Positions 3,801 to 31,916 of a stretch of DNA of 64,000 nucleotides are shown here, in pieces. The notes under the pieces are model-generated. The model did not search any database and had not been told where the DNA came from. It was given only the letters and a program-made list of their open reading frames with translations. The stretch is from Escherichia coli O127:H6 str. E2348/69. Lineage in GTDB: Bacteria; Pseudomonadota; Gammaproteobacteria; Enterobacterales; Enterobacteriaceae. Both the position numbers and the translations under genes were made by a program. The DNA is taken from NCBI RefSeq assembly GCF_000026545.1, contig NC_011601.1; one strand, written 5' to 3'. Position 1 is the first letter of the stretch. Each line of letters begins with the position of its first letter.

Positions 3801-4478
3801 TCAGATCTCCGACCATTCCCGCAGCAGATTATGATAAAGATTGAGCAGCGACAGGATCTCTTCACTTTCGCCGTAGTGGCTTTTCAGCGACTGAATATTG
3901 TTGTCCAGTTCAAACAGCATGGCGCGCTTTTTATCATCACGGATCATCGACTGGATCCACATAAATGATGCCACTCGCACGCCGCGGGTTACGGGTGTCA
4001 CGCAATGCAGGCTGCTGGAGGGATACAACACCAGATCGCCTGCCGGGAGTTTTACCCGATGTTGCCCGAAGGTGTCATTAACGACCAGTTCGCCGCCGTC
4101 GTAGCTTTCTGGATCGCTTAAAAACAGCGTGGCAGAAAGGTCAGTGCGCATCCAGCCGTTTTGTGGATGGCTGCGTACTGCGCCATCCACATGAAAACCA
4201 TAGGTTTCATTGTTCTGATAGCGATTAAACAGCGGCGTGGAAAGGGTACGCGGCAAGGCCGCGGCAAAGAACAAAGCATGTTGGTTAACCGCGTTCAGCA
4301 CCTCATTTTGCAGGGCGGCGTACAGGGCGCTGCGGGTGTCTACTTGTTGATTGTTCTTAACTTGCGCACCTTGTGCGCCGGTGGTGACGCGCCCATCCAC
4401 CCATTCGGCTTGTTCCAGTTGTTCGCGAAAACGGGCGACGTCCTGTGGCGATAACACGCCGGGAATGTGGTACATCAT
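3801..4478 (-). CDS. ybiX: PKHD-type Fe(II)/2-oxoglutarate-dependent hydroxylase
   Basis: Track ORF is 237 aa; start trimmed to the internal Met (MMYHIPGVL...) to give the expected 225 aa; lies downstream of fiu in the same orientation. Confidence 0.85.
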
Positions 4479-4519
4479 ACAAGTTCTCCAAAAAGTGGGG
4501 CCTGCGCCCCACATCTGAA

Positions 4520-6802
4520 TCAGAAATGCATATTGGCCGTGAGCAGGAAGGTTCTTGGCTCGCCCGGGTGATAACGGTAGCCGCTCTTGTTGATTGAGGC
4601 GACGTAATCGGTATCAAACAGGTTGTAGACGTTTAGCTGGAAGTCGAGATTGCGATTAACCCGATACCCCAGTTTGGCATCGGCGACCCAGTAACCTTCG
4701 GTAAACGCTGGCGTTCCCACCGCGCCGTCTGAACCTTTATGCATACTGCCGATATACCGTGCGCCCGCACCAACAGAAATATCATCGGTTGCCTGATACT
4801 GGCTCCATAAGGTGAAGGCGTGTTCCGGGGTATACGGCAGCGATGAGGAACCATCCTGGGCAACATCTTTGCCGTTTTTGATAGTTGCTTTTTGCTGGGT
4901 ATAGCCGCCAATCATCTGCCATGCGGGGGTGATATTCCCGGCCACGGATATCTCGTAACCTTCGACACGTTTCTTACCATATTGCGAATAAGTCCCGTCA
5001 TCATTTTGCTCAACTTCATTTTCAATATCAGTACGGAACAGCGCGGCGGTAAGTAGCAGGCGTTTATCCAGAACCTGCCATTTGGTGCCAATCTCGCTGG
5101 TGTTGGCTTTTTGCGGTTTAAAATCGGTGCGGTTGGCACTGTTACCGCTGCCAGACTGCGCAAGGGCGAAGTTGTTGCCGCCCGGCGGCTGCTGGGAAAC
5201 GGCATAGTTAATATAGACATTGCCGTTTTCCGTCAGGTGATACAGCGCCCCGGCTTTCCAGTTCACCAGATTGCCCGACTTGGCGGTGTCGACGGTGGTG
5301 ACCGGAGAACCTTTTGCCACGCTAGCAGGGCAGGTGATGGCACCGCGCCCGCTGCCGCCGCAGGCGGTGGCACTGTCATATTCAGTATGATAATTATCCA
5401 GACGGATCCCACCGTTCAGCTCAAAATCACGGGTGATTTGCAGCGTATCGAAGGCATAAATTGCGAAGGTATCCGTCTGACCATTGGCGTTTGCGCCGTT
5501 GCGCGTCAGGCCGCCGGGATGAATGCTGCTGTCAGGATGATAAATATTTACCGCCGGTAACGTCACCGGATTAACGCCATAGTTAGTCTGTGTTTCGCGG
5601 GTAAATTCCACGCCGGTACTGACATCATGACCGATAGCGCCGGTATAGAACGTCGAGGTCAGGTTGGTCTGGTTGGTGAGAATTTTGTTACTCACATCTT
5701 TGGTATTCGCCGTGCGTGACCACGTCCAGCTATTCACATCGCTGGTGGGCTGGGTAATATTCGACGCTCCACCCATAATCGCCGTCATCAGGTAATCCTG
5801 CTTTACGCGCGACCAACGCGTAGTGTTGCGAATGGTGGTGTTATCGTTGATGTCGTGCTCAAAACGCATGGTAGCGGTGTCGGTGGTCGAATCGTCGTAA
5901 TCGGAATCCGTGCCGTAAAAGTTATGAGTATCAACTTTTCCGGAATGATTCAGGGCCGCTGTTCCCGCAGATGGGGCAGAATAACCCGGTAAACCGATGG
6001 TCGGAATGCCGCCGTCTGGCGTGTTGTGCTGGGTGACATGCAGATAATTAAGATACAAACGATTCGCTGTACCAAGGCCAAAAGCGACAGAAGGGGCGAC
6101 GCCGTAACGCTCATTTTTGACTTTGTTGCGTCCGGCATCGTGCGTTTTTTCGCCCATTACATTCAGGCGCACCGCAGTGGTATCACCAATGACCTGATTG
6201 ACGTCCAGCGTGCCGCGGCGGAACCAGGCGCTGCCAATACTGGCGGAGGCGTCAATGCCGGAATCATTGCGCGGCTGTTTGCTGATCATATTGATCGAGC
6301 CTGTCGGTGCGCTGCGCCCGTAGTCGGTGCCGGACGGCCCTTTAATTACTTCGACCTGCTCGGTATTGAAGGTGTCGCGCGAGACGCTGCCGATATCGCG
6401 AATGCCATCGATATAAATACTGTTAGAGGTATCGGCACCGCGCATATAAATGGCGTCGCCAGTGGTGGAGTTACCGTTCTCACCCGCAAAAAACGCACCC
6501 ACGCCGGGGACGTTTTTGAGCGCGTCGGTAAGGTTGGTTGCACCCTGATCTTTAATCACTTGTTCAGAAATCACTGTCATCGTGCGGGTAGTATCCGCTA
6601 CCGGACGCGAGAATTTCGGATCGGCAGATTTTTGTGGCGCATAAAGCGAAGGCGTTGATGCTTCGACAACCAGCGTGTCATCCGCGTTAGCTTGCCCTTC
6701 GGCAGCGAGTGCCTGTGCCACAGGCGTAATACCAATACAAAGACCGGCAAAGAACGTGAGCGAATGAAATTGTCTGGCAGGGAAATTGCGATTGTTTTCC
6801 AT
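4520..6802 (-). CDS. fiu: TonB-dependent catecholate siderophore outer-membrane receptor
   Basis: 760 aa; signal peptide; C-terminal ...NMHF with terminal Phe typical of TonB-dependent barrels. Confidence 0.95.
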
Positions 6803-6906
6803 TTTGCAGGTGACTTTTTCTTATATGGTGAAATTTTCACTGTCACGAGAAAGCATCTCTGCGGATGCGATGCCACTGTTAATCCCGTGATAGCGTCTGT
6901 GCAAGT

Positions 6907-6931
6907 GATAATAATTTTGATAAGCATTATC
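6907..6931 (-). promoter_or_regulatory. Fur box in the fiu promoter
   Basis: GATAATAATTTTGATAAGCATTATC resembles the Fur consensus GATAATGATAATCATTATC; sits about 100 bp upstream of the fiu start. Confidence 0.6.
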
Positions 6932-7066
6932 ACTTGGCGCGATTTTCTATCACCCATTGCGCGAAAAAGAAATACATTTATTTACATTGCGTTCATATTT
7001 GATGTTTTTTGCTTACAAATTGGACGAAAACTGCATCCAGAGGCGAATGCAGTTACGTTGGTGGGG

Positions 7067-7327
7067 TTATTTGTAGATGATTGCAGTACCGAACATCTGG
7101 TCATTTCCGCCTGCGGAATTAATGACATAACCTTTCGCGCCTTGTTCGCGCGCTTTTTCTGCCAGTTTATCCTCCAGATCGCTTAGGTTTGATGCGCCAG
7201 TTGCCGAAACGGTACCGGCGGGCCGTAGCTGACCGCTGTCCAGGTTACTCATCGGTTGCGCGGCATAAGCCGTGAGAGAGATTCCGCTCAGGACGGTGGC
7301 AATCAGTAGTGTGAGGCACTTTTTCAT
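7067..7327 (-). CDS. mcbA: DUF1471 periplasmic protein, colanic-acid/biofilm regulator
   Basis: Start trimmed to MKKCLTLL... (86 aa); signal peptide; C-terminal ...GTAIIYK paralogous to ybiJ. Confidence 0.85.
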   Translation of the reverse strand: MKKCLTLLIATVLSGISLTAYAAQPMSNLDSGQLRPAGTVSATGASNLSDLEDKLAEKAREQGAKGYVINSAGGNDQMFGTAIIYK

Positions 7328-7602
7328 AATGACATCCTCATAAATACAACGGGTAGTGCCAGATAAGTGTAGGTCGCCTGCGCGATGAAAATGACGCAAA
7401 AAATTGACAGAGATGCGCTTATTTTTTGAACGATATATTTTTACAAAATAAGACAAATCAATGACATGCATGATGATGATTTTTATGGTGAATTGCCATA
7501 AACCATAGCCATGTGAAGGTTTTTAGAAATGATAAACGCAGCCAGATATTTACCCTGTCGCGTTATGCGGGTATCTTACGCCGCTGCTTAAAGGAGAATG
7601 CT

Positions 7603-8529
7603 ATGTCCGCCCAGAAACCGGGGTTGCATCCGCGCAACCGTCATCACAGCCGCTACGATCTCGCCACGCTTTGTCAGGTCAATCCTGAACTCAGGCAATT
7701 CCTCACGCTTACACCCGCCGGGGAGCAAAGCGTAGACTTTGCCAATCCGCTGGCGGTGAAAGCGCTCAATAAGGCGTTGCTGGCCCATTTTTACGCCGTA
7801 GCGAACTGGGATATCCCGGACGGTTTTCTCTGCCCACCAGTACCGGGCCGGGCGGATTATATTCATCACCTTGCCGATTTACTGGCCGAAGCAAGCGGAA
7901 CAATTCAAGCTAATGCCAGCATTCTGGATATCGGCGTTGGTGCGAACTGTATTTATCCGCTGATTGGCGTACATGAATATGGCTGGCGTTTTACCGGTAG
8001 TGAAACCAGCAGCCAGGCGTTAAGCAGTGCGCAGGCGATCATCAGTGCTAATCCGGGGCTTAACCGCGCCATTCGTCTGCGTCGGCAAAAAGAGAGTGGG
8101 GCGATTTTTAACGGCATCATCCATAAAAACGAGCAATACGACGCGACCTTGTGTAACCCGCCATTCCACGATTCCGCCACTGCGGCACGGGCAGGTAGTG
8201 AACGTAAACGCCGTAACCTGGGGCTGAACAAAGACGATGCACTGAACTTTGGTGGTCAGCAACAGGAGTTGTGGTGTGAAGGCGGTGAAGTCGCCTTTAT
8301 TAAAAAGATGATTGAAGAGAGCAAAGGCTTCGCGAAGCAGGTGATGTGGTTTACCTCGCTGGTATCTCGTGGTGAAAACTTACCGCCGTTGTATCGTGCT
8401 CTGACGGACGTAGGTGCGGTGAAGGTGGTAAAAAAAGAGATGGCCCAGGGGCAAAAGCAGAGCCGCTTTATAGCCTGGACCTTTATGAACGACGAGCAGC
8501 GCCGCCGTTTTGTCAATCGCCAGCGTTAA
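7603..8529 (+). CDS. rlmF: 23S rRNA m6A1618 methyltransferase
   Basis: Start trimmed to [10 protein letters not shown]... with AAGGAG RBS (308 aa); NPPF methyltransferase motif present. Confidence 0.9.
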
Positions 8530-10751
8530 AGCGTTGGCTCCCCCGGCGGCAACGGTTCAGCCGGGGCCGCGCCCGGAGCTGGCAGCACCTGATAAGTCTG
8601 TACCGGCGCGCGAACACCCGCCAGGTCGAAATGTTTTTTCACCTGGCTGTCGAGGGCAAAGCGGACCGTCCACTGTTTGAGTGGCAGCGTGGTGAACGAA
8701 ACACGCAGTGTAAACGCGGTATTGCTTAAGCCGACAATCCCGGCAAAGTTCGGTTCACCAATAACCAGCCCGCGAATTTCTTCGTTTTCCATCAATTCTG
8801 CTACCGCATCTTTCAGTGCCTGATTGGCTTTATCAGCATCTTCATGGCGATCAACATCGTAGTTTGCCACTACCGAACCAATACCGCGGACGAAGTTAGC
8901 AAAGGTGGTTATCGAAGACCACGGAATGATGTGATACGCCCCGGTATCCTGGCGCACGCCCACGGAGCGAATCGACATCCGTTCCACAGTGCCGGTCAAC
9001 GGCCCGATAGTCACCAAATCTCCAGTGTTCATGCCGTTTTCAAACTGAATAAATACTCCGGTAATAATATCTTTCACCAGCGTTTGCGAACCAAACGAGA
9101 TAGCCAGACCTAATGCCCCGGCACCTGCCAGCAATGGCGCGATATTGACGCCGATTTCCGACAACACAATCATGATGGTGATGGTACTGATAATCACCGC
9201 CAGCGCGTTACGGAACAGCGTCAGCAGGGTTCGCGTACGGGCGCTGGGTAGCGGGCGGCCATGAATATCCGAAGCCAGCCGGTTTTCTATCAAACTGGCG
9301 AGCACCGTCCAGCCAACCGCCGAGAAGAAAAGAATGAGTGCGATACGGATCAGGATATCTACGGTTTTCTGCCCCGCTCCGTTTTGCAGCCAGTTCCAGA
9401 AATCGAACAATCCCCATGCGCTCAACAGCAGCATTACCGCCACGCAGACTGTCAGAATACGCGCTGTTTTCAGTGCCGCCGAAAGCCATCCATTCAGCCG
9501 TTTTTGCAGCTCGGGATAGTTACGCTGAGTATGTGGCGAGAGAGTGATGGTTTTCGCCAGCCAGCGGGAAAACATACCGGAAACAAATGCTGCGATACCA
9601 ATAATCGCCAGGCTGCGCACCGTTGCACCCATCATAAATTTCAGGCTGTTGCCCGGATCGAACAACGAAAAGAAAAACAGCACGATAAAATAGGCGCTTG
9701 CCAGCCAGTGCCACACCAGCGCAAAGGCGCGGATAAACAGGCTGAAAAAGGCCAGCGAATGCTCCGCAAAGTTGAGCAAATGCTGGGTGATCTCTTTTTT
9801 ATTACGAAAAATCAGGTACAACGCCCAGACGGTCATGCACAGCATAATGATGACGTTTGCCAGCGCACCTATCTGTACATTCACCTGATTAGAGATAATC
9901 GGCACAGCCACAATCAGACCATAGCCAATCAGGCTGCTTAACCAGCTCAGGCGACGACTCCAGTAACGGGCGGTCTCGTCATGAATCGTGAACGGGCGCA
10001 GTTCAGCTACGTTTGGGCAAAAAATCAGGCGTAGTACGGCTTTGAAAAATTCAATCAGGGCAAAGGCGTTGAGAAACAAACTTTGTTGGAAAGCGATGGT
10101 GCGACTGCCCGCATTCAGGTTGTCGCTTAATACCTGGCCGACAAATAATGTCAGTGCCAGTAACAGCAGGTCGATAATAAACGCCCCGATGATCATCGCC
10201 GGAAGCTGCAACCAGTTACTGCGCTCACGATTTTTTTGCCGCGCCCACTGGCCCATTTTGCGATACAGCGGCAGTGCGCACAGACGAATCAGCCAGTAAA
10301 AACCAAACACTAATACCGCTAACATTGAAAAGTGGGTCAGCGCATTGCTGAAGGTTTGTGGATTAAACGGCTTATGCGGGGAGCCGGTGATATTGCGATA
10401 AAGTTGCCCGAAGCGGGCGGAAAGGGCTTCACCATAATGGCGGCTGACTTCGGTGACTTTTTGCAGCACGGTTTGCTCTTCAACCAGCGTCGGCGGCACG
10501 ATCTTCGGTACGGGTTCCGCAGGAGGCGTAGCGGCGACGGTGCGCAACTGGTCGATCAACTCTTTACGCGAGGTGTCATTATCCAGCACATCCGCCAGTG
10601 CGCCATAGGCCGCTTTTTTTTGTTCGATATCCGGTTCCGGGGCCGGTTCAGTCGTTGAGTCCGTTGTCGTTGTGGTTGTAACGCCGGGTATGGATACCGC
10701 GTGGGCAGGTGCGCCCAACAGGCAGAAGAGGATGAACAGGATCCACCGCAT
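8526..10751 (-). CDS. ybiO: MscS-family mechanosensitive channel
   Basis: Start trimmed to MRWILFILF... (741 aa); signal peptide, multiple TM helices, MscS-like C-terminal domain. Confidence 0.9.
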
Positions 10752-10867
10752 GACTCCTCCAGTGAGAAAACAGAGCAAAAAGATAAGTATAGATGCTGGA
10801 GGCTGGGCGATTTTAAATGAGAGGAATCTGGTGTGCCTCCCTTTCGGGGGAAAGGGAGGCAGAGAAG

Positions 10868-11590
10868 TTAAGAGACGTGCTGCAAAAATTCCTGCAAGCG
10901 CTGGCTCGGCGGGTTCTTGATCAACACCTGCGGATCGCCATCTTCTGCAATCCGGCCTTTGTCGATAAAGATCAGGCGCGAAGCTACTTTCTCGGCAAAA
11001 CCGATTTCGTGGGTCACGATCACCATCGTCATCCCTTCTTCAGCCAGATCCTGCATAACCTTCAGCACTTCATGGCGCAGTTCCGGGTCAAGAGCGGAAG
11101 TCGGTTCATCAAACAGCATCATTTTCGGCTTCACCGCCAGCGCGCGGGCAATCGCCACACGCTGCTGTTGACCACCAGAAAGTTCGGAAGGGTAGTGATG
11201 TGCACGCTCTGCCAGACCGACTTTCGCCAGCAGCTCACGCGCCAGTTTTTCCGCCTCTTCTTTATTCGCGCCACGCACGCGTAGCGGGCCAAACATGACG
11301 TTTTCCAGCGCCGTCAGATGCGGGAAGAGGTAAAACTGCTGGAACACCATACCCGCTTCCTGGCGAATCAGGCGCTCATCAACTTTCGGATCGTTAACCT
11401 TCAGGCCATCGACAATCAGATCGCCGGAGGTGATTTCTTCCAGTTTGTTGATGCAGCGCAGCAGGGTCGATTTACCGGAACCGGACGGCCCGATAATCAC
11501 CACGACTTCGCCCTGAGCAATGTTCAAATCGATATTGTGCAGCACCTGGGTTGGACCAAAATGCTTGGAGACGTTTTTAAATTCAATCAC
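10868..11590 (-). CDS. glnQ: glutamine ABC transporter ATP-binding protein
   Basis: 240 aa; Walker [13 protein letters not shown] signature LSGGQQQR, Walker [13 protein letters not shown]. Confidence 0.95.
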
Positions 11591-20665: not shown

Positions 20666-21586
20666 TTAATTCAGACGAACCGGCATCCCGGAACGATTTT
20701 TGATCGCTTCATCCAGAACAACCTGGTCAACATCTGGCTGACCGGTCACTGTCTGCACGCTCTTCGTCAGGGTAATTGGCACAATTTCCTGACCTTCAAA
20801 CTGGGCTTCAGTGGTAGACAGCGGGTTATGGACTTCAATATAACGGCTGCCGTCTGGCTCGGTGGTCGCTTTTACCGGCTCATCAATAAACTGTACGCGG
20901 GTACCGACCGGTACTTTCTCGAACAGGAATTTGATGTCTTCGTTACGCAGACGCACACAACCATGACTTACACGCAGGCCGATACCGAAGTTGGCGTTGG
21001 TGCCATGGATAGCGTACAGGCGACCGATGTAGAGTGCATACAGCCCCATCGGGTTATCCGGACCAGCCGGAACGACCGCCGGAAGCGGTTCGCCCGCAGC
21101 GCGGTACTCTGCGTGCATTTTAGCGGTCGGCGTCCAGGTCGGGCCTGCTTTTTTACGCTCAACTTTGGTGGTCCAGTTGATAGGCGTGTCTTTGCCTAAC
21201 TGACCAATGCCGATCGGCAGCACGATAACGGTGTTGGTCCCTTTCGGATAGTAATACAGACGCATCTCTGCACTGTTAATGACGATGCCTTCATGAACGG
21301 TATCCGGCAGGATCAGCTGCTGCGGAATGTTCAGTACAGTACCGCCTTTCGGCAGGAAGGTATCCACACCCGGGTTCGCTTCCATCATATTGGAAAGTCC
21401 CATCTGGTACTCGGCGGCAAAATACTCCAGCGGCTGAGTGTTACCTTCAGGAATGGTGATCACCTGATTCTGACCAACCAGGCGACTCCCGTCGGTTGGC
21501 AGAGGATAAGTTACCGCAGAGGCGGTACTGCAAAAGCCGACAACAGCGAAGGCCGCTGCGAATAATGTTTTCAATTTCATATTCAT
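20666..21586 (-). CDS. ldtB: L,D-transpeptidase anchoring Lpp to peptidoglycan
   Basis: 306 aa; signal peptide; YkuD-type catalytic motif (SHGCVRL). Confidence 0.9.
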
Positions 21587-21804
21587 GTTAAGCGAGATTT
21601 TGTGCCTGGCAGGCCATTGGGTTGAGAATATTAGAGTATTGGGAGTGCATTATAAGTTCATTCCAGCTCACAGTGAAATCAGATGTGTACGAAATCACAT
21701 TTTTTGCCTTTGGCTTGAGTGTAGACCTTAAGCGAGGAGCAGGATCTTCTTTCAGACTTATGGCATAATGCGCGGTTTGTCATATCTCTTTTCAGGATAC
21801 GCCT

Positions 21805-23397
21805 GTGTTAGTTTCCAGTAACGTCACCATGCAGTTCGGCAGTAAGCCGTTGTTTGAAAACATTTCCGTCAAATTCGGCGGCGGCAACCGTTACGGCCTG
21901 ATTGGCGCGAACGGTAGTGGTAAATCCACCTTTATGAAGATCCTCGGCGGCGACTTAGAGCCGACGTTGGGTAACGTTTCCCTCGATCCCAACGAGCGCA
22001 TTGGTAAGCTGCGTCAGGATCAGTTTGCCTTTGAAGAGTTCACTGTGCTGGATACGGTGATCATGGGGCATAAAGAGTTGTGGGAAGTGAAGCAGGAACG
22101 TGACCGCATCTATGCTTTGCCGGAAATGAGTGAAGAAGACGGCTATAAAGTGGCCGATCTGGAAGTGAAATACGGCGAAATGGACGGTTACTCTGCGGAA
22201 GCTCGCGCTGGTGAACTGTTGCTTGGCGTGGGAATTCCAGTGGAACAGCACTACGGCCCGATGAGTGAAGTTGCTCCTGGCTGGAAGCTGCGTGTGCTGC
22301 TGGCGCAGGCGCTGTTTGCTGATCCGGACATTCTCCTGCTCGACGAACCGACCAACAACCTCGACATCGACACCATTCGCTGGCTGGAACAGGTGCTGAA
22401 CGAGCGTGACAGCACCATGATCATCATCTCGCACGACCGTCACTTCCTTAACATGGTTTGTACCCACATGGCGGATCTGGATTACGGCGAGCTGCGCGTT
22501 TATCCGGGCAACTACGATGAGTACATGACGGCGGCGACTCAGGCGCGTGAACGTCTGCTGGCTGATAACGCCAAGAAGAAAGCGCAGATTGCTGAGTTGC
22601 AATCTTTCGTTAGCCGCTTTAGCGCCAACGCCTCGAAATCTCGCCAGGCAACTTCGCGCGCGCGCCAGATTGATAAAATCAAACTGGAAGAGGTGAAAGC
22701 CTCCAGCCGTCAGAACCCGTTCATCCGTTTTGAACAGGATAAGAAACTGTTCCGTAACGCGCTGGAAGTGGAAGGTCTGACTAAAGGGTTTGATAACGGT
22801 CCGCTGTTTAAAAATCTCAACCTGCTGCTGGAAGTGGGTGAAAAACTGGCTGTACTGGGTACCAACGGCGTCGGTAAATCAACGCTGCTGAAAACGCTGG
22901 TGGGCGATCTGCAACCGGACAGCGGCACCGTAAAATGGTCTGAGAACGCGCGCATTGGTTACTACGCCCAGGACCATGAATATGAGTTCGAAAATGATCT
23001 GACCGTGTTCGAATGGATGAGCCAGTGGAAGCAGGAAGGCGATGACGAGCAGGCGGTACGCAGCATTCTCGGTCGTTTACTGTTCAGCCAGGACGACATC
23101 AAAAAGCCAGCGAAAGTGCTTTCCGGTGGGGAGAAAGGGCGGATGCTGTTTGGTAAGTTAATGATGCAGAAGCCGAACATTCTGATCATGGACGAACCGA
23201 CCAACCACCTGGATATGGAATCCATCGAGTCGCTGAACATGGCGCTGGAACTGTATCAGGGCACGCTGATCTTTGTTTCTCACGACCGTGAGTTTGTAAG
23301 CTCCCTGGCGACCCGTATTCTGGAAATCACCCCGGAACGCGTGATCGACTTTAGCGGTAATTACGAAGATTACCTGCGTAGTAAAGGGATCGAGTAA
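21805..23397 (+). CDS. ybiT: ABC-F family ATPase (two ABC cassettes, no TM domain)
   Basis: 530 aa; two Walker A motifs ([18 protein letters not shown]) and two signature motifs; GTG start. Confidence 0.9.
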
Positions 23398-23440
23398 GTT
23401 ATTATCAGTAGCCCTGATATGGTCAGGGCTACTGAAACTG

Positions 23441-23560
23441 ATGACAAACGCAAGATTGCCTGGTGCGCTACGCTTATCAGGCCTGGTAGTGTATCGCAAT
23501 ATATTGAATTTTCATGATTTTGTATGCCGAATAAGGCGGTTACGCCGTATCCGGCATAAT
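23441..23560. repeat. REP palindromic elements
   Basis: gcctggtgcgctacgcttatcaggcc and gccgaataaggcggttacgccgtatccggca REP-like units after ybiT. Confidence 0.6.
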
Positions 23561-23596
23561 GACATGCACTTTCTCAATAAACTGAATTGGCGATAA

Positions 23597-24412
23597 TCAA
23601 AGATTAAACGGCGGTTTATTTTCCAGCACCGCCTGAATCACATTCAGCGCGCCTTCATGATTATTATCATCGGTAGCGTAACGGGCGATTTGTTTAATGT
23701 TTTCCGCAGCATTGCTCATCGCAAAGGAATAACGCGCCATTTTCAGCATCTCCGCATCGTTACCGCTGTCGCCAATCGCTACCACATTTTGCGGTGACAG
23801 ATCCCAGCGTTTCAGTAACCGCGAAATACCGTTTGCTTTATGTAGACCGGGAATAATCAAGTCGATAAAGCCAAAACCACTGGTGACGGGTTTCATAATG
23901 CCATCCAGCGCTATGTGCAGTTTGTCGATCACTAACGGGATTTGTTCATCCGGCAGGTTGAGCGAAAACTTGAACAGTACGTCGTCAATCTCCTGATAAT
24001 CTTTTACAGGTTTCAGGCGATGGTAGTGTTTTGCCATCAGTGCGACGAATGCTTCGGGGGCATTTTCGCTGACATATGCACTTTGCAGACCGCAGGCGAC
24101 AAAATTGAGTTGCTTATCTTTTAGCAACTCGCCAATAACAATCCGCGATTCATGTCGGGTCAGTTCGCCGTGGAACAACTGCTTGCCATGTTCGTAAACC
24201 AGTGCGCCGTTTTCCGCGACAAAAGAGATCTCATCCTTTAGCTCAGGAAAGAACGAAATAAGCTGGTAATACTGATTACCGCTGGCGACAACGAACTCAA
24301 TGCCGCGCTTTTTCAGTTCCTGATATTGCGCCATAAAACGTGGTTGGTTGTACGTTTTGGCGTCGTTAAGAAAAGTACCGTCCATGTCTGTGACGATAAC
24401 TTTTACGCTCAT
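23597..24412 (-). CDS. ybiV: HAD-superfamily (Cof-type) sugar phosphatase
   Basis: 271 aa; DMDGT HAD motif I near N-terminus. Confidence 0.9.
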
Positions 24413-24556
24413 AGGTGTGCTCCTGGCTCGAAAATGAAACCGTAACAGTGTAATAACAATGTGACGCAGAGCACAAATTATATTTCGAATGAAAGTGAGA
24501 ACAGGATTGATGATGTGAATGATTTAGCCCGGCGATGTCTCCGCCGGGCTGAGGGA

Positions 24557-26989
24557 TTACAGCATGTGTTCGGTACGGGCGATGATATCGTCTTGTGCGT
24601 CTGGAGAGAGTGCGGTGAAGAAGGCTGAATAACCCGCTACGCGTACCACCAGATCGCGGTACTGATTCGGATGTTTTTTCGCTTCCAGCAGCGTTTCGCG
24701 GGAAACGATGTTGTACTGAATATGCCAGCCTTTATGCACCTCAAAGAAGGTACGTAGCAGGATCATCAGTTTCTGCTTGTCAGATTCGTTCTCCAGCGTT
24801 GCCGGATTCAGTTTCTGGTTGAGCAACACGCCGCCGAGAATCGCTGCCGTAGGCAGTTTACCCACCGAGCCAATGACCGCCGTTGGGCCGAGATGGTCAG
24901 TACCGGAGGCCGGACTAGCGCCTTCTGCCAGCGGGGTATGTGCTTTACGTCCGTCCGGCGTTGCCATAGTCTGCGCGCCAAACGGTACGTTAGCGGAGAT
25001 AGACGACGTACCCGCGTAATAGTTGCCGCCAACCGGACCACGACCGTAGCGTGGGTTATGGTACTGTTTCAGTTCGTCGATATAGGTCTGATAAGCGCGA
25101 GCCAGCAGCGTATCGACGGTATCATCGTCGTTGCCGTACTTCGGCGCACCGTTAATCAGCCGCTGACGCAGTTGCTCATGAGTCAGGCCATCGAAGTCAT
25201 CCGCCAGTGCGGCAGCCAGCTGTTGCTGACCAATCGCGCCCTGTTCAAATACCAGTTTCTTCACTGCCGCCAGGCTGTTGCCGAGGTTGGCAATGCCAAC
25301 CTGCAGGCCAGAAACCCAGTCATATTTCGCGCCGCCTTGCTTGATACTTTTCGCTCGCTCAATGCAGTCATCCACCAGCGCCGAGCAGAGAATATCGTGC
25401 ACGTTCTCTTCCAGCATGGTGTCGACGACATATTCGATTTCGATTGATTTACGGGTGTAGTAACGGATTTGCGTGTCCCACGCGTCCATCACTTCATCGA
25501 AGTTGTTGAAGTTACCCGCTGACAACGCTTTTTCTTGTGGCAGGAACACTTTGCCGCTGGTGGCATCACGACCGCCTTCCAGCGCCGCCAGCATCACGCG
25601 GGCGAAGTTGATAAAGCTCATCCCGGTGCAGCGATAGCCCCATTTGCCACCGACGGCGGTTTCGATACAGCCAATCGCCGCGTAGTCGTAAGCGTCCTGC
25701 GGTTCAATACCGAGTTTAATAAATTCCGGGATGACGATTTCGTCGTTGTTGAACGCGGGCATCCCGAAGCCGCAGCGAATCACCTGCACACAGGCGTCGA
25801 GGAAATCGTTGCTCAATCCCGCATGGTAACGCACGCTGAGGTTAGGCTGAGTCGAACGCAGGCGACCGCAGGATTCGAGGATCGCGTAAGAGAGTGGATT
25901 CACCGCGTCCATTGGTTGACCATCAACCAGATTTTGCCCGCCAATGGTGACGTTCTGATACAGCGGACTTCCCGCAGAGGCTTTTGAGTGTGAGCCGGAG
26001 CGGATTTTGTTCACTTCCAGCAATTTCAACCAGCAGCTATGCAACATCTCGATGGCGTGTTCGCGATCCAGTGTCTGGTTCAGTTCAACGTCACGGCGAT
26101 AGTACGGGTAGAGATACTGGTCCATACGACCAAACGATACCGAGTGTCCGTTGGATTCGATCTGCAAAATCAACTGGATGAAGTAGCACAGTTGCAGCGC
26201 CTGCCAGAAAGTCTGCGGCGGCTGGTGGGCGATAAGATCGCAGTTTTCTGCTATCGCCCGCAGTTCATCGCGACGGCTTTCGCGGGTTTCAGTCGCTGCC
26301 ATTTCACGCGCCAGGGCAGCGAAACGTTCAATATGTTCACTGACCGCCACCAGCACGATATCAATCGCTTTCAGGAACTGCTCGCCGTGCAGATCTTCCA
26401 GCACTGTCAGGTTAATACGCGAGCGGCGCTCCGCCACTTTCTCGCGCAGACCATCAAGCCCTTTTTCCAGCAACAGCGGGAAATTGACCGCCAGGTGCGC
26501 ATCGCCGGAGGTCATATTACCTTCCGCTTTAATGATACCGGTCGCCAGCAGGCCTTTTTGCTCATCGGTAAACATGCCATAGCAGCGATCCTGTACCGTC
26601 TGACCGCGCCACCATGGGCACACTTCATGCAGAACGCGTTTGTTCTCTTCGCTCACCGCAAAACCTGCACCCGGACGATCCGCCAGATCATCAATCTCTT
26701 TTTCGATCCAGGAGACGGTATATTCCGGGAAGATCGGCGCGGCGCGAACTTCGCTGGCCTGGTTGCCGATGATCAACTCATCGTGTTTGATCCAGATGGT
26801 GCGATTCGCCAGGTGATGGGCCAGCGCCAGCGCGCGACGTACCGGGATCGGCTTATCGAGATGTTGTTGATACATCTCGGTATAGTGCTGCGCGCGCTCG
26901 GTACAGACCGGCGGTTTCACAATATTCACCAGCGCATTTTTGTGCGCTTTAATGCGGTCGCTGAGCGTGTCCAGTTTCAGTGTGGTCAT
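24557..26989 (-). CDS. ybiW: glycyl-radical enzyme (pyruvate formate-lyase family)
   Basis: 810 aa; C-terminal glycyl-radical motif RVAGYSA. Confidence 0.9.
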   Translation of the reverse strand: MTTLKLDTLSDRIKAHKNALVNIVKPPVCTERAQHYTEMYQQHLDKPIPVRRALALAHHLANRTIWIKHDELIIGNQASEVRAAPIFPEYTVSWIEKEIDDLADRPGAGFAVSEENKRVLHEVCPWWRGQTVQDRCYGMFTDEQKGLLATGIIKAEGNMTSGDAHLAVNFPLLLEKGLDGLREKVAERRSRINLTVLEDLHGEQFLKAIDIVLVAVSEHIERFAALAREMAATETRESRRDELRAIAENCDLIAHQPPQTFWQALQLCYFIQLILQIESNGHSVSFGRMDQYLYPYYRRDVELNQTLDREHAIEMLHSCWLKLLEVNKIRSGSHSKASAGSPLYQNVTIGGQNLVDGQPMDAVNPLSYAILESCGRLRSTQPNLSVRYHAGLSNDFLDACVQVIRCGFGMPAFNNDEIVIPEFIKLGIEPQDAYDYAAIGCIETAVGGKWGYRCTGMSFINFARVMLAALEGGRDATSGKVFLPQEKALSAGNFNNFDEVMDAWDTQIRYYTRKSIEIEYVVDTMLEENVHDILCSALVDDCIERAKSIKQGGAKYDWVSGLQVGIANLGNSLAAVKKLVFEQGAIGQQQLAAALADDFDGLTHEQLRQRLINGAPKYGNDDDTVDTLLARAYQTYIDELKQYHNPRYGRGPVGGNYYAGTSSISANVPFGAQTMATPDGRKAHTPLAEGASPASGTDHLGPTAVIGSVGKLPTAAILGGVLLNQKLNPATLENESDKQKLMILLRTFFEVHKGWHIQYNIVSRETLLEAKKHPNQYRDLVVRVAGYSAFFTALSPDAQDDIIARTEHML

Positions 26990-26994
26990 GGTTG

Positions 26995-27894
26995 TTATCC
27001 TCGTAAGGTCGCGGTTAACCCTTTCTGGCAGGCATACTGCTGGGCAAAGTCGAGCAGTTCTGGCGCATCAAGCGGTTTTTCCGGCGCGTCATAGGGCAGA
27101 TTAAGTAAGTGATATTTGTTGATGCCCAGCGTGTGGTAGGGCAGGAAATGAATTTCGCCAACGTGCAGCTCGTCGGCGGCAAAATCGGTAATGGCTTTTA
27201 CAGAGGTTTCGTCGGCATTAAAGCCCTGAATCAACGGCACGCGGATGATGATTTTTTTCCCCGCCGCAGCGAGTTTTTTCAGGTTATCCAGCACTCTGGC
27301 GGCGTTACCGTCGGTCCACTGTTTAAACGGCGCGTCGGCAACATGTTTTAAATCGGCAAGAAACAGATCGATATAGGGCAGAGAAGGGGCGATATATTTC
27401 CACGGCACATGCAGACAGGTTTCTACCGCAGTATGAATGCCGGCCTCGTGGCTGGCTTGCAGTAGCCCCATCGCCATTTCCGGCTGCATAAACGGTTCAC
27501 CGCCAGAAAGCGTTAAGCCGCCGCCGCTGCGATCGTAAAACGGTTTATCACGCAGAACAGTCGCCATGATCTCCTCTACGCTTTTCACTTCACCACACAC
27601 GGTTAACGCCTGTGTCGGGCAGCAGTCGGTTAACGCCGTCAGATGCTCCGGGGTTAACTTTTCCCGATGAATAAGCAAACCATTCAGCGCGCGCTCAATC
27701 ACTTCCGGCGCGGTCTTAGCGCACAGCTCGCAGCCTTCCAGACACAGACGTGCGTCATACAGAAGATCCTGCGTGCGGGCGCGGCTTTCCGGGTTCTGAC
27801 ACCAGCGGCAGCCCAGTGAACAGCCTTTAAGAAAAACGACCGTGCGGATACCGGGGCCGTCATGGGTCGAGTAGCGCTGAATATTGAAAATCAT
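26995..27894 (-). CDS. ybiY: glycyl-radical enzyme activating protein (radical SAM)
   Basis: Start trimmed to [17 protein letters not shown]...; radical-SAM cysteine cluster; directly upstream of ybiW. Confidence 0.9.
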
Positions 27895-28024
27895 AGTTGC
27901 CTCTCTGTTTCGTTCAAACATTAAAATGCTTTCGAATGAAAGCTGGATTGATGTGCGTCAACTGTTCAGAGAGTTTTCCCGTGATAGTCTACATTCAGAC
28001 AAAAAGTACATTTTGAGGATGGTT

Positions 28025-28687
28025 ATGGAACTGTATCTGGATACTTCAGACGTTGTTGCGGTGACGGCGCTGTCACGTATTTTTCCGCTGGCGGGTGTGA
28101 CCACTAACCCAAGCATTATCGCAGCGGGTAAAAAACCGCTGGAGGTTGTGCTTCCGCAACTTCACGAGGCGATGGGCGGTCAGGGGCGTCTGTTTGCCCA
28201 GGTAATGGCTACCACTGCTGAAGGGATGGTTAATGACGCACGTAAATTGCGTTCTATTATTGCGGATATCGTGGTGAAAGTTCCGGTGACCGCCGAGGGG
28301 CTGGCAGCGATTAAGATGTTAAAAGCGGAAGGGATTCCGACGCTGGGAACCGCGGTATATGGCGCAGCACAAGGGCTACTGTCGGCGCTGGCAGGTGCGG
28401 AATATGTTGCGCCTTACGTTAATCGTATTGATGCTCAGGGCGGTAGCGGTATTCAGACTGTGACCGACTTACACCAGTTATTGAAAATGCATGCGCCGCG
28501 GGCGAAAGTGCTGGCAGCGAGTTTCAAAACCCCGCGTCAGGCGCTGGACTGCTTACTGGCAGGGTGTGAATCAATTACTCTGCCGCTGGATGTGGCACAA
28601 CAGATGATTAGCTATCCGGCGGTTGATGCCGCTGTGGCGAAGTTTGAACAGGACTGGCTGGGAGCGTTTGGCAGAACGTCGATTTAA
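28025..28687 (+). CDS. fsaA: fructose-6-phosphate aldolase 1
   Basis: Start trimmed to [10 protein letters not shown]... with GAGGA RBS (220 aa); transaldolase-like fold. Confidence 0.9.
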
Positions 28688-28762
28688 CCGGACGTTCTGC
28701 ATCCTCATAAATTGCTGATGACGTGGCGGAGTGCCGCGTCTTATCTGGCCTGGAGGTGGCAG

Positions 28763-29512
28763 TTACTGCCCGCACACCTCACACCCCGGATTGCGCATCA
28801 GTTTCATTTCGCGAAACTGACAGGTCATCGCATCGTACATCACGATTTTCCCGCTGGCTGGTTTGCCATAACCTGCCAGCAGTTTGATTGCTTCCATTGC
28901 CTGCAACGAACCAATTACGCCGATTAACGGTGCCATCACGCCTGCTTCTACGCAGGTTAACGCGTTCTCGCCAAACAAACGGCTAAGGCAGTGATAGCAC
29001 GGTTCGCCGTCCTGATAAGTGAAGACCGTGATTTGCCCTTCCATACGAATTGCCGCGCCGGAAACCAGCGGCACCTTCGCGGCAAAACAGCCTGCGTTCA
29101 GTTGATTACGTACTGCAACGTTATCCGTACAGTCGAGCACCAGATCGTGTTTTGCAATCATCGCAGCAAGTTCAGCGTCATCAAGCAGCGCATTGACTGG
29201 CGTAATCGCGATATGTGGGTTGATCCGCGTCAGGGCGTCACGGGCGGATTCCACCTTTGGTTGCCCGACCGTGGCATCACTGTGCAGCGTCTGGCGTTGC
29301 AGATTGGAGAGCGAAACCGTGTCGAAGTCGAGCAGAGTCAGGTTGCCGACACCGGCGCTTGCCAGATACTGCGAAGCTGCGCAGCCGAGTCCACCAAGGC
29401 CGACGACCAGCACGCGGGAATCTTTCAATGCTTCCTGACCGTCAAAATCAAAACCGCGCAGAATGATTTGCCGGTTGTAGCGCAGCATCTCCTGATCGCT
29501 GAGTTCCGCCAT
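28763..29512 (-). CDS. moeB: molybdopterin-synthase adenylyltransferase
   Basis: 249 aa; ThiF/MoeB nucleotide-binding GLGGLG motif and C-terminal CxxC. Confidence 0.95.
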   Translation of the reverse strand: MAELSDQEMLRYNRQIILRGFDFDGQEALKDSRVLVVGLGGLGCAASQYLASAGVGNLTLLDFDTVSLSNLQRQTLHSDATVGQPKVESARDALTRINPHIAITPVNALLDDAELAAMIAKHDLVLDCTDNVAVRNQLNAGCFAAKVPLVSGAAIRMEGQITVFTYQDGEPCYHCLSRLFGENALTCVEAGVMAPLIGVIGSLQAMEAIKLLAGYGKPASGKIVMYDAMTCQFREMKLMRNPGCEVCGQ

Positions 29513-30747
29513 TACAGGCCTCCGAACAACGCGTTAAACGGTTCTACTTCCACCCATTCGCCCACTTCCACATTGCCGCGATCGCGTTCCAGCACGATAA
29601 AGCAGTTGCCGAGGCTAAAGGAGCTAAATATATGTGAACCCTGATGTCCGGTGGTGGTGACTTCCAGTTCGCCATCGGTGTTGCGTTGCAGCACGCCGCG
29701 CTGGAAATCAAGGCGTCCTGGCGTTTTTTTCAGGCGGGACGCTGTGCGTACACGCTGGCGCGCGGGCAGGCCACTGGCGGTATTGCCGCTTAGTTTTGCC
29801 AGCAAAGGCTGTACCAGTTGATAGAAGGTCAGCGTCGCTGAAACCGGGTTGCCCGGCAGGCCGCAGAACCAACTATTAGCAAGTTTACCGAATGCGAACG
29901 GTTTACCCGGTTTAATCGCCAGTTTCCAGAAGGCAATCTCCCCCAGCTCTTCAAGAATCGTTTTGGTGTAATCCGCTTCACCCACTGAAACACCGCCGGA
30001 ACTGATCACCACATCCGCCTGGCTGTCGGCTTCAATAAATGCGGCGCGCAGGGCATGGGGATCGTCACGGATAATCCCTAAGTTGATTACCTCGCATCCC
30101 AACTGTTCTAACATCAGGTGTACGGCGAGACGGTTGGTATCGTAGATTTGGCCGTCGCCCAACGGCTGACCGGGCAACTGGAGTTCATCACCGGTAGAAA
30201 AAAGCGCTACACGCACTTTACGAATCACCGGAACTTCGGCAATCCCTAGCGAAGCAATCACTGGCAGTTCAGCGGTAGTCAGGCGAGTCCCCGCCGGGAA
30301 AACAACCGCACCTGCAGAGATATCTTCACCGCGACGGCGAATATTTTGCCCGCTACGCGCTTCAGCAGTAAAACGCACGCCATTGTCCGTTTGTTCAGTC
30401 TGCTCCTGCATCACCACCGCTTCGCAGCCTTCCGGCACCGGCGCACCGGTCATAATACGAATGCAGGTACCCGCAGGCCATTCACCATGGTACGGCTGAC
30501 CGGCAAAGGATTTACCGGCAACGGGCAGCGGTTGCCCGGAGGCAATATCGGCTAAACGCACCGCGTAGCCGTCCATAGCGGAGTTATCAAACCCCGGGAC
30601 ATCCAGTGGCGAAACGACATCACTCGCCAGAATACGACCAAAACACTGAACCAGTGGCAGCGTTTCCTGGGCGGTCAGTGGGGTAACGCGACAAAGCATC
30701 TCATTAAGCGCGGTGTCGAGCGACATCAATCCGGTGGTAAATTCCAT
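29512..30747 (-). CDS. moeA: molybdopterin molybdenumtransferase
   Basis: 411 aa; forms moeAB operon. Confidence 0.95.
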
Positions 30748-30950
30748 GAAAACACTCCTGCGGAGGCAAAATCGAATTTGCCTATTATGTCAGAAAAACG
30801 CCACAGACTGTATGCCACCTCGGGCGTAGCGCTGGCTCCTGCCTTTACATGCCATATCCATCTTTCTATATTCAAAAATTGAATGAGTCATTCATAAAAA
30901 TTCTGATATTTATAGCAAAAGTGGCGAGCCACCCTTAATGGACGAATACT

Positions 30951-31916
30951 ATGGGCAAAGCAGTCATTGCAATTCATGGTGGCGCAGGTGCAATTAGCCG
31001 CGCGCAGATGAGTCTGCAACAGGAATTACGCTACATCGAGGCGCTGTCTGCCATTGTTGAAACCGGGCAGAAAATGCTGGTAGCGGGCGAAAGTGCGCTG
31101 GATGTGGTGACGGAAGCGGTGCGTCTGCTGGAAGAGTGTCCACTGTTTAACGCCGGAATTGGCGCTGTCTTTACGCGTGATGAAACCCATGAACTGGACG
31201 CCTGTGTGATGGATGGTAACACCCTGAAAGCCGGTGCGGTGGCGGGCGTTAGTCATCTGCGTAATCCGGTTCTTGCCGCCCGACTGGTGATGGAGCAAAG
31301 CCCACATGTGATGATGATTGGCGAAGGGGCAGAAAATTTTGCGTTTGCTCATGGCATGGAGCGCGTCTCGCCGGAGATTTTCTCCACACCTTTGCGTTAT
31401 GAACAACTAATGGCAGCGCGCGAGGAAGGGGCAACAGTCCTCGACCATAGCGGTGCGCCACTGGATGAAAAACAGAAAATGGGCACCGTAGGGGCCGTGG
31501 CGTTGGATTTAGACGGCAATCTGGCGGCAGCCACGTCCACGGGCGGAATGACCAATAAATTACCCGGACGAGTTGGCGATAGTCCCTTAGTGGGGGCCGG
31601 ATGCTATGCCAATAACGCCAGTGTGGCGGTTTCCTGTACCGGCACGGGCGAAGTCTTCATCCGCGCGCTGGCGGCATATGATATCGCCGCGTTAATGGAT
31701 TACGGCGGATTAAGTCTCGCGGAAGCCTGCGAGCGGGTAGTAATGGAAAAACTCCCTGCGCTTGGCGGTAGCGGTGGCTTAATCGCTATCGACCATGAAG
31801 GGAATGTCGCGCTACCGTTTAACACCGAAGGAATGTATCGCGCCTGGGGCTACGCAGGCGATACGCCAACCACCGGTATCTACCGTGAAAAAGGGGACAC
31901 CGTTGCCACACAGTGA
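30951..31916 (+). CDS. iaaA: isoaspartyl peptidase / L-asparaginase (Ntn hydrolase)
   Basis: 321 aa; conserved GTVGAVALD autoprocessing site. Confidence 0.9.

Follow-up and report, generated by a model that had tools for sequence, protein, structure and literature searches.

The ybiW-ybiY genes of Escherichia coli O127:H6 strain E2348/69 code for a glycyl-radical enzyme (GRE) and its radical-S-adenosylmethionine (SAM) activase, and very likely form the anaerobic 1,5-anhydroglucitol-6-phosphate (AG6P) lyase system of E. coli. These genes were analyzed in a 64,000-nucleotide stretch of the chromosome (hereafter, the window), whose coordinates equal those of NZ_LT827011.1 minus 800,000, and the list of open reading frames (ORFs) was compared with the RefSeq annotation. 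The GRE gene, ybiW (24557..26989, minus strand), codes for 810 amino acids and carries the radical site Gly786, the thiyl-forming Cys441 and Glu443 in a GCIE loop. The activase gene, ybiY (26995..27894, minus strand), codes for 299 amino acids, and divergent from it lies fsaA (28025..28687, plus strand), the gene for fructose-6-phosphate aldolase 1 (220 amino acids, Schiff-base Lys85). Region 23400-29000 shows 100% identity to the E2348/69 chromosome, for which RefSeq gives the gene order ybiV, ybiW, ybiY, fsa, moeB, moeA.

The initial annotation of this region had called a GRE next to a radical-SAM activase with a divergent fsaA beside them, and both calls are borne out by the ORFs at these coordinates, by Pfam and NCBIfam models and by active-site motifs; FsaA scores 449.3 bits against NF009296 (cutoff 306) and 278.6 bits against TIGR00875 (cutoff 246). 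It had taken fsaA as a pointer to an anaerobic, sugar-derived substrate, and rightly so: the published substrate of YbiW is AG6P. It described the pair as an orphan whose substrate is unresolved; this has been overtaken, since the substrate was published in 2024 (Ma et al., via PMC12441222). The finding is thus real and correctly placed and named, yet biochemical work and structures in the literature already account for it. That pathway accounts for FsaA, long a puzzle, and for two E. coli GREs, and the window brings no new enzyme. What our analysis adds is a warning about annotation lag, a model of regulation by FNR and YciT drawn from a footprint in 80 species, and a view of the neighboring gene ybiU.

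Assignment of the ybiW-ybiY locus to AG6P cleavage

In its part on this pathway, a 2025 review (PMC12441222) states, with reference to Ma et al. (J Am Chem Soc 2024;146:26187, doi 10.1021/jacs.4c07718), that YbiW cleaves AG6P to 1-deoxyfructose-6-phosphate. In the same part of the review, a phosphotransferase system (PTS) is said to import and phosphorylate both 1,5-anhydroglucitol and 1,5-anhydromannitol, PflD to convert 1,5-anhydromannitol-6-phosphate to the same product, 1-deoxyfructose-6-phosphate, and the YbiW/PflD reaction to require the glycyl radical; strictly anaerobic growth on 1,5-anhydroglucitol is thereby described as enabled in E. coli and many gut bacteria. AG6P is also the toxic metabolite of the neutropenia associated with G6PC3 and glycogen storage disease type Ib (PMC12441222). 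The Protein Data Bank (PDB) contains two crystal structures of YbiW (8ID7 and 8YJN) and a structure of PflD (8YJO). Downstream, FsaA or FsaB reportedly splits 1-deoxyfructose-6-phosphate into glyceraldehyde-3-phosphate and hydroxyacetone, and the latter is said to be turned into 1,2-propanediol by GldA. Hydroxyacetone has long been known as the preferred aldol donor of FSA, which is consistent with such a step. The YbiW protein has been found to be raised in Shigella in the anaerobic gut. 1,5-Anhydroglucitol is an abundant dietary and blood polyol and a clinical marker of glycemia, and the pathway permits its fermentation by gut Enterobacteria.

We assign this reaction to the E2348/69 pair because of its orthology to the characterized K-12 enzyme, its match to the two YbiW structures and its identical chromosomal context. 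YbiW matches 8id7 and 8yjn over its full length, both being titled 'Probable dehydratase YbiW', and the K-12 orthologs (b0823/b0824) show the same gene order, the same motifs and the same divergent fsaA. Compared with K-12, 802 of 810 residues of YbiW (no gaps), 296 of 299 of YbiY and 215 of 220 of FsaA are identical; none of the eight substitutions in YbiW or the three in YbiY is catalytic, and E2348/69 differs further from K-12 in its missing ybiU.

Conservation of the locus was assessed with a protein-seeded scan of contigs from one genome per species. At least 588 stretches with relatives were found, of which the best 80 loci were kept; these are Enterobacterales loci, from Escherichia to Serratia, Yersinia and Brenneria, with 85-99% identity. 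Among them, ybiY lies directly upstream of ybiW without exception (80/80), fsaA is divergently adjacent to ybiY in 61, and the region downstream of ybiW contains ybiV in 58 and ybiU in 56. A homolog of the DeoR-family regulator YciT, 58-78% identical to E. coli YciT, flanks ybiW in 11 of the 80 loci, in most of them directly downstream. These 11 loci belong to distant genera (Serratia, Buttiauxella, Brenneria, Rouxiella, Affinibrenneria, Mangrovibacter and Franconibacter) and have no ybiV, and the linkage supports a role of YciT as a regulator dedicated to the pathway.

Three points weigh against the AG6P lyase assignment. The AG6P reaction rests, in the papers searched, on a secondary citation and on the names of PDB entries. 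The E2348/69 allele is not that of K-12, although 0 of the eight differences in YbiW fall on a catalytic motif residue. Finally, the link to the aldolase is not universal, in that about a quarter of the 80 loci, including those of Klebsiella and Raoultella, have no adjacent fsaA. Some of these fsaA-less loci end short; in Klebsiella and Raoultella moeB is genuinely found beside ybiY. The arrangement in which moeB adjoins ybiY with no fsaA between them was seen in Klebsiella, Raoultella and some Kosakonia and Phytobacter; such genomes must carry the gene for the next-step aldolase at another place.

It could be argued from such loci that the pair is a genuine orphan, for which AG6P cleavage is a side activity and some other anaerobic metabolite the physiological substrate. 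The generic names kept by RefSeq and NCBIfam would fit this view, as would two conserved neighbors, ybiV (a phosphatase) and ybiU (DUF1479), to which the published pathway assigns no role. Against it stand a substrate, a product and a growth phenotype given independently in the relevant part of the review (PMC12441222), dedicated structures of both YbiW and PflD, and the divergent aldolase of 61 loci, for which 1-deoxyfructose-6-phosphate is a plausible substrate. We therefore regard a true orphan as very unlikely.

NCBIfam release 20 contains subfamily models only, with no equivalog for YbiW or YbiY, and for this reason generic RefSeq names persist: the protein is still a 'glycyl radical protein', and the K-12 entry still reads 'putative pyruvate formate lyase'. 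As late as 2026, two years after publication of the biochemistry, a preprint described ybiYW as having no functional annotation.

Slightly less probable still is that the AG6P lyase locus is decaying in E2348/69, with the loss of ybiU as a sign that the cluster is being dismantled. This gene (DUF1479/Gig2-like, K-12 b0821) is cleanly absent compared with K-12, leaving an alignment gap of ~1.46 kb. Of 5426 complete E. coli genomes, 4249 contain its DNA and ~22% lack it, as E2348/69 does; further genomes carry a divergent ybiU allele, with 82% protein identity in one locus (L004). The rest of the locus does not look like a relic. The genes ybiW, ybiY, fsaA and ybiV are full length with intact motifs, internal stops are absent from ybiW, ybiY and fsaA, and only 8, 3 and 5 substitutions separate YbiW, YbiY and FsaA from their K-12 counterparts. 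The promoter elements described below are intact, and the 5.6-kb region 23400-29000 is kept in 5425 of the 5426 genomes. The other genes of the cluster are likewise retained without ybiU in E. albertii and E. whittamii. We view ybiU as a conserved but dispensable cluster member.

Family placement and proposed mechanism

The assignment as an AG6P lyase agrees with the family to which YbiW belongs. The protein consists of a PFL-like domain (PF02901, E = 5.9e-209) and a Gly_radical domain (PF01228, E = 2.3e-32), and it shows the hallmarks of the glycyl-radical superfamily: G786 lies in an RVxG motif (VRVAGYS), and C441 lies in the Cys loop AAIGCIETAVGG, which is conserved in K-12. In addition, the loop has the Cys-x-Glu form of 1,2-eliminases (IGCIE), with E443 two residues past C441. 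YbiW scores 1400.6 bits against TIGR01774, the model of the PFL2/glycerol dehydratase subfamily (cutoff 678). In PDB searches, its nearest solved relative other than YbiW itself is the B12-independent glycerol dehydratase 1r8w (E = 1.7e-164), followed by propanediol dehydratase, choline trimethylamine-lyase and hydroxyproline dehydratase; structures of pyruvate formate-lyase (PFL) match with E = 1.4e-43 and over residues 254-806 only.

Judged from these features, YbiW is a member of the 1,2-eliminase class of GREs and not a PFL, because it has no Cys-Cys pair and fails both the PFL and the PflD equivalog models. The older notion of a third pyruvate (or 2-ketoacid) formate-lyase, which lives on in the K-12 RefSeq entry and in several PDB entries ('putative pyruvate formate lyase', 'formate C-acetyltransferase') and could draw on the fold and glycine-radical domain shared with PflB, is effectively refuted by a TIGR01255 score of 161.7 bits (cutoff 994), by a weak match to PflB structures confined to the residues given above, and by a GCIE Cys-x-Glu loop of eliminases where the adjacent Cys-Cys pair is absent, and we give it next to no weight.

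PflD orthology was likewise rejected, the PflD equivalog NF007437 giving 579.9 bits (cutoff 1109). PflD is thus a paralog of YbiW rather than its ortholog. The E. coli PflD/PflC system (PDB 8YJO) belongs to the same eliminase clade (E = 1.6e-145) and performs the same ring opening on the C2 epimer, with the same product. Its genes, pflDC, are part of the frw PTS cluster, with fsaB and gldA as neighbors; unlike that context, the ybiW locus contains no PTS genes.

Like glycerol dehydratase (1R8W), the choline trimethylamine-lyase CutC, propanediol and hydroxyproline dehydratases and isethionate sulfite-lyase, YbiW has a glycine radical and a Cys-x-Glu loop and carries out a 1,2-elimination, which would likewise proceed from an alpha-hydroxy radical; the activases of the glycerol dehydratase group carry a Cys-rich insert. 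The difference lies in the leaving group: YbiW expels the ether oxygen within the ring of its sugar phosphate, whereas those eliminases lose water, an amine or sulfite. None of the equivalog models of those eliminases reaches its cutoff with YbiW. Common to this pair and PflB/PflA are the ten-stranded barrel typical of GREs, a glycine-radical domain at the C terminus and an activase of the radical-SAM type; PflB, however, cleaves a C-C bond by means of a Cys-Cys pair, whereas YbiW has a single Cys, no CC dipeptide and a distant sequence.

YbiY contains Radical_SAM and Fer4_12 domains (Pfam) and belongs to the GRE activases, with 368 bits against TIGR02494 (cutoff 174). Its CX3CX2C motif is formed by C25, C29 and C32. 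The Cys-rich insert has six Cys residues (C51, C55, C58, C91, C92 and C100), compared with eight in two canonical CX2CX2CX3C motifs; these are predicted to be ligands of an auxiliary Fe-S cluster. The Schiff-base lysine of FsaA, K85, lies in IVVKVPV.

On the basis of these residues, a mechanism can be proposed, in which gene identities, residues and linkage are those observed here and the radical steps follow by analogy with GRE eliminases and from the published reaction. The [4Fe-4S] cluster held by the CX3CX2C motif of YbiY would cleave SAM reductively to a 5'-deoxyadenosyl radical, which would take a hydrogen from Gly786 of YbiW. During turnover, the Gly786 radical would generate a thiyl radical on Cys441, and this would abstract the hydrogen at C2 of AG6P. 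Glu443 would act as the base that deprotonates the 2-OH, and the C2 ketyl radical would expel the vicinal C1-O5 ring oxygen. The ring of AG6P would thus open to an alpha-keto C1 radical, and return of the hydrogen by C441 would give the 1-methyl ketone, 1-deoxyfructose-6-phosphate. FsaA, through Lys85, would then split this product, as is reported of it, into glyceraldehyde-3-phosphate, which would enter glycolysis, and hydroxyacetone. The net reaction of YbiW is an isomerizing ether cleavage, and the 'dehydratase' of the PDB titles is therefore only a family label.

Proposed regulation by FNR and YciT

Upstream of ybiY, three elements lie in a conserved arrangement. A box in the ybiY-fsaA intergenic region, TTGATgtgcGTCAA (27948..27961, not assigned to a strand), has one mismatch to the FNR consensus TTGAT-N4-ATCAA. 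Next comes a 14-bp palindrome, CTTTCATTCGAAAG (27929..27942, minus strand), a putative YciT operator shared by the ybiY and fsaA promoters, and beyond it a predicted -10 hexamer of ybiY, TTTAAT (27920..27925, minus strand). The hexamer would put the start of transcription near 27913, with a leader of ~19 nt.

Nearly all loci with the operator also have a TTGAY-N4-RTCAA box whose start lies exactly 20 bp upstream of the palindrome; the distance is fixed except in one or two loci, where it is shifted. The 5' half of the box reads TTGAC or TTGAT in 69 of 77 loci and the 3' half reads ATCAA or GTCAA in 73, while the four-base spacer takes 37 different forms across the 77. TTTAAT stands at a constant offset from the operator in 61 of these loci. 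With this hexamer as the -10 element and the start therefore at ~27913, the FNR box is centered 41.5 bp upstream, the geometry of class II FNR promoters, and this position holds across genera. The box at 27948..27961 is accordingly proposed as a candidate class II FNR activator site, from which ybiY would be transcribed in anaerobiosis. CRP was also considered as the protein that reads this box and was rejected, the conserved half-site being TTGA and not GTGA.

The ybiY promoter (ybiYp) has been reported to be active only anaerobically and with an activator that was not identified (Reg-Seq preprint, bioRxiv 10.1101/2025.05.13.653802). This and a second preprint, both based on massively parallel reporter assays (MPRA), suspect that the predicted ybiY start is misplaced. 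If the start is moved ~20 bp downstream, the 'activator' signal of the MPRA falls on the FNR box, and the signals of YciT and RNA polymerase fall on the palindrome and the -10 hexamer. In a generic scan for sigma-70 promoters and terminators, the number of matches did not exceed that in shuffled sequence, and the conserved -10 hexamer was not among them.

The palindrome recurs within the cluster. The 13-mer CTTTCATTCGAAA has two exact occurrences in the window, at 27930-27942 upstream of ybiY and at 24483-24495 upstream of ybiV, where it forms part of a second copy of the palindrome, CTTTCATTCGAAAT (24482..24495, minus strand), that abuts a TATAAT hexamer. In K-12, a third copy lies upstream of ybiU (~7095-7110 of the K-12 comparison stretch). 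When at most two mismatches were allowed, CTTTCATTCGAAAG was found upstream of ybiY in 75 of 80 loci, upstream of ybiV in 50 of 58 and upstream of ybiU in 55 of 56; upstream of the control genes ybiW, moeB and yciT in related loci, there was none within three mismatches. YciT has been mapped at ybiY, fsaA and ybiV by chromatin immunoprecipitation with exonuclease treatment (ChIP-exo), which also yielded a palindromic motif, and the expression of these three genes is altered in a yciT deletion strain (PMC8464067); the published change is an up-regulation. YciT was also recovered in a pull-down with ybiYp as bait (bioRxiv 10.1101/2025.05.13.653802). Taken together, these results make CTTTCATTCGAAAG the probable operator of YciT, a DeoR-family repressor that would block the ybiY promoter by binding between the FNR box and the -10 hexamer. 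Near the ybiV copy, just downstream of the palindrome and TATAAT, a CRP-like TGTGC-N6-TCACA sequence was seen at 24460-24475, and a similar sequence is present in other genera.

Yersinia loci depart from this arrangement. In three of them (4313-11131 of their stretches), ybiY-ybiW lies between sgrR and a setA-like MFS gene, an arrangement of sgrR and ybiYW that was recorded in 2009 (PMC2760817). These loci have neither the FNR box nor the palindrome. Because the sgrR-linked promoters lack both, the comparison supports the idea that the two boxes are regulatory modules that may be swapped. The Yersinia context further suggests SgrR-controlled removal of a glucose-6-phosphate analog, with AG6P as the sugar-phosphate stressor; a swap to SgrR, if true, would fit AG6P as a toxic analog of glucose-6-phosphate.

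These elements can be combined into a single model. FNR would be the anaerobic activator of ybiYp, acting at a site shared with the fsaA promoter; YciT would be a pathway repressor that senses a sugar phosphate (AG6P or 1-deoxyfructose-6-phosphate as effector) and binds CTTTCATTCGAAAG at ybiY/fsaA, ybiV and ybiU; YbiV and YbiU would be members of the regulon; and Yersinia would have exchanged this control for SgrR. We offer the model as a whole tentatively, as a possibility to which we lean slightly less than to its contrary. Four points count against its FNR part. One-mismatch FNR-like sites number 8 in the 64-kb window against 3.4 expected, so that a single match is not unusual. The start of ybiY is predicted from the -10 hexamer, not mapped. 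In the literature searched, the second Reg-Seq-type preprint included, no link between ybiY and FNR was found, and motif scanning by the Reg-Seq authors gave no candidate activator for ybiYp. The picture of joint control by FNR and YciT was likewise not found stated in the papers searched, and it amounts to a modest, testable addition to the published pathway.

Translation starts, neighboring genes and minor features

The start codon of ybiW follows the ybiY stop by 5 nt, and its Shine-Dalgarno sequence (ACGAGGA) lies within the 3' end of ybiY; translation of the pair is thus probably coupled. The ybiY ORF spans 26995..27921 (minus strand), with the annotated start of the 299-amino-acid product at 27894. 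This is the better start and the credible product: a GAGAGG Shine-Dalgarno sequence lies 6 nt 5' of it. The 308-amino-acid form of an older annotation, which begins at the ATG at 27921, was rejected, as this ATG has no Shine-Dalgarno sequence and falls inside the predicted -10 hexamer.

Directly 3' of the ybiW stop, a GC-rich hairpin, AGCCCGGCG-N7-CGCCGGGCT (~24526-24550), was observed that has no T-run; it could act as a weak terminator or stabilize the mRNA, setting ybiYW apart from ybiV. A scan of 21000-31000 with Rfam gave zero matches, i.e., no riboswitch or small RNA. A 161-bp internal fragment of ybiY, over-expressed in either orientation, has been reported to cause filamentation of E. 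coli, with no effect of full-length ybiY, and its authors consider the phenotype non-physiological (PMC6206680).

Beyond the hairpin lies ybiV (23597..24412, minus strand), which codes for a HAD-IIB (Cof-type) sugar phosphatase of 271 amino acids and is a candidate co-regulated member of the cluster. The site at which ybiU is missing, 23398..23596 (not assigned to a strand), consists of 199 bp of REP-like sequence between ybiT and ybiV, and the REP-like sequence GCCTGGTGCGCTACGCTTATCAGGCCT occupies this short spacer. A perfect 13-bp inverted repeat is found 3' of ybiT and is probably the ybiT terminator; this repeat and the REP-like sequence lie at 23405-23435 and ~23460-23490.

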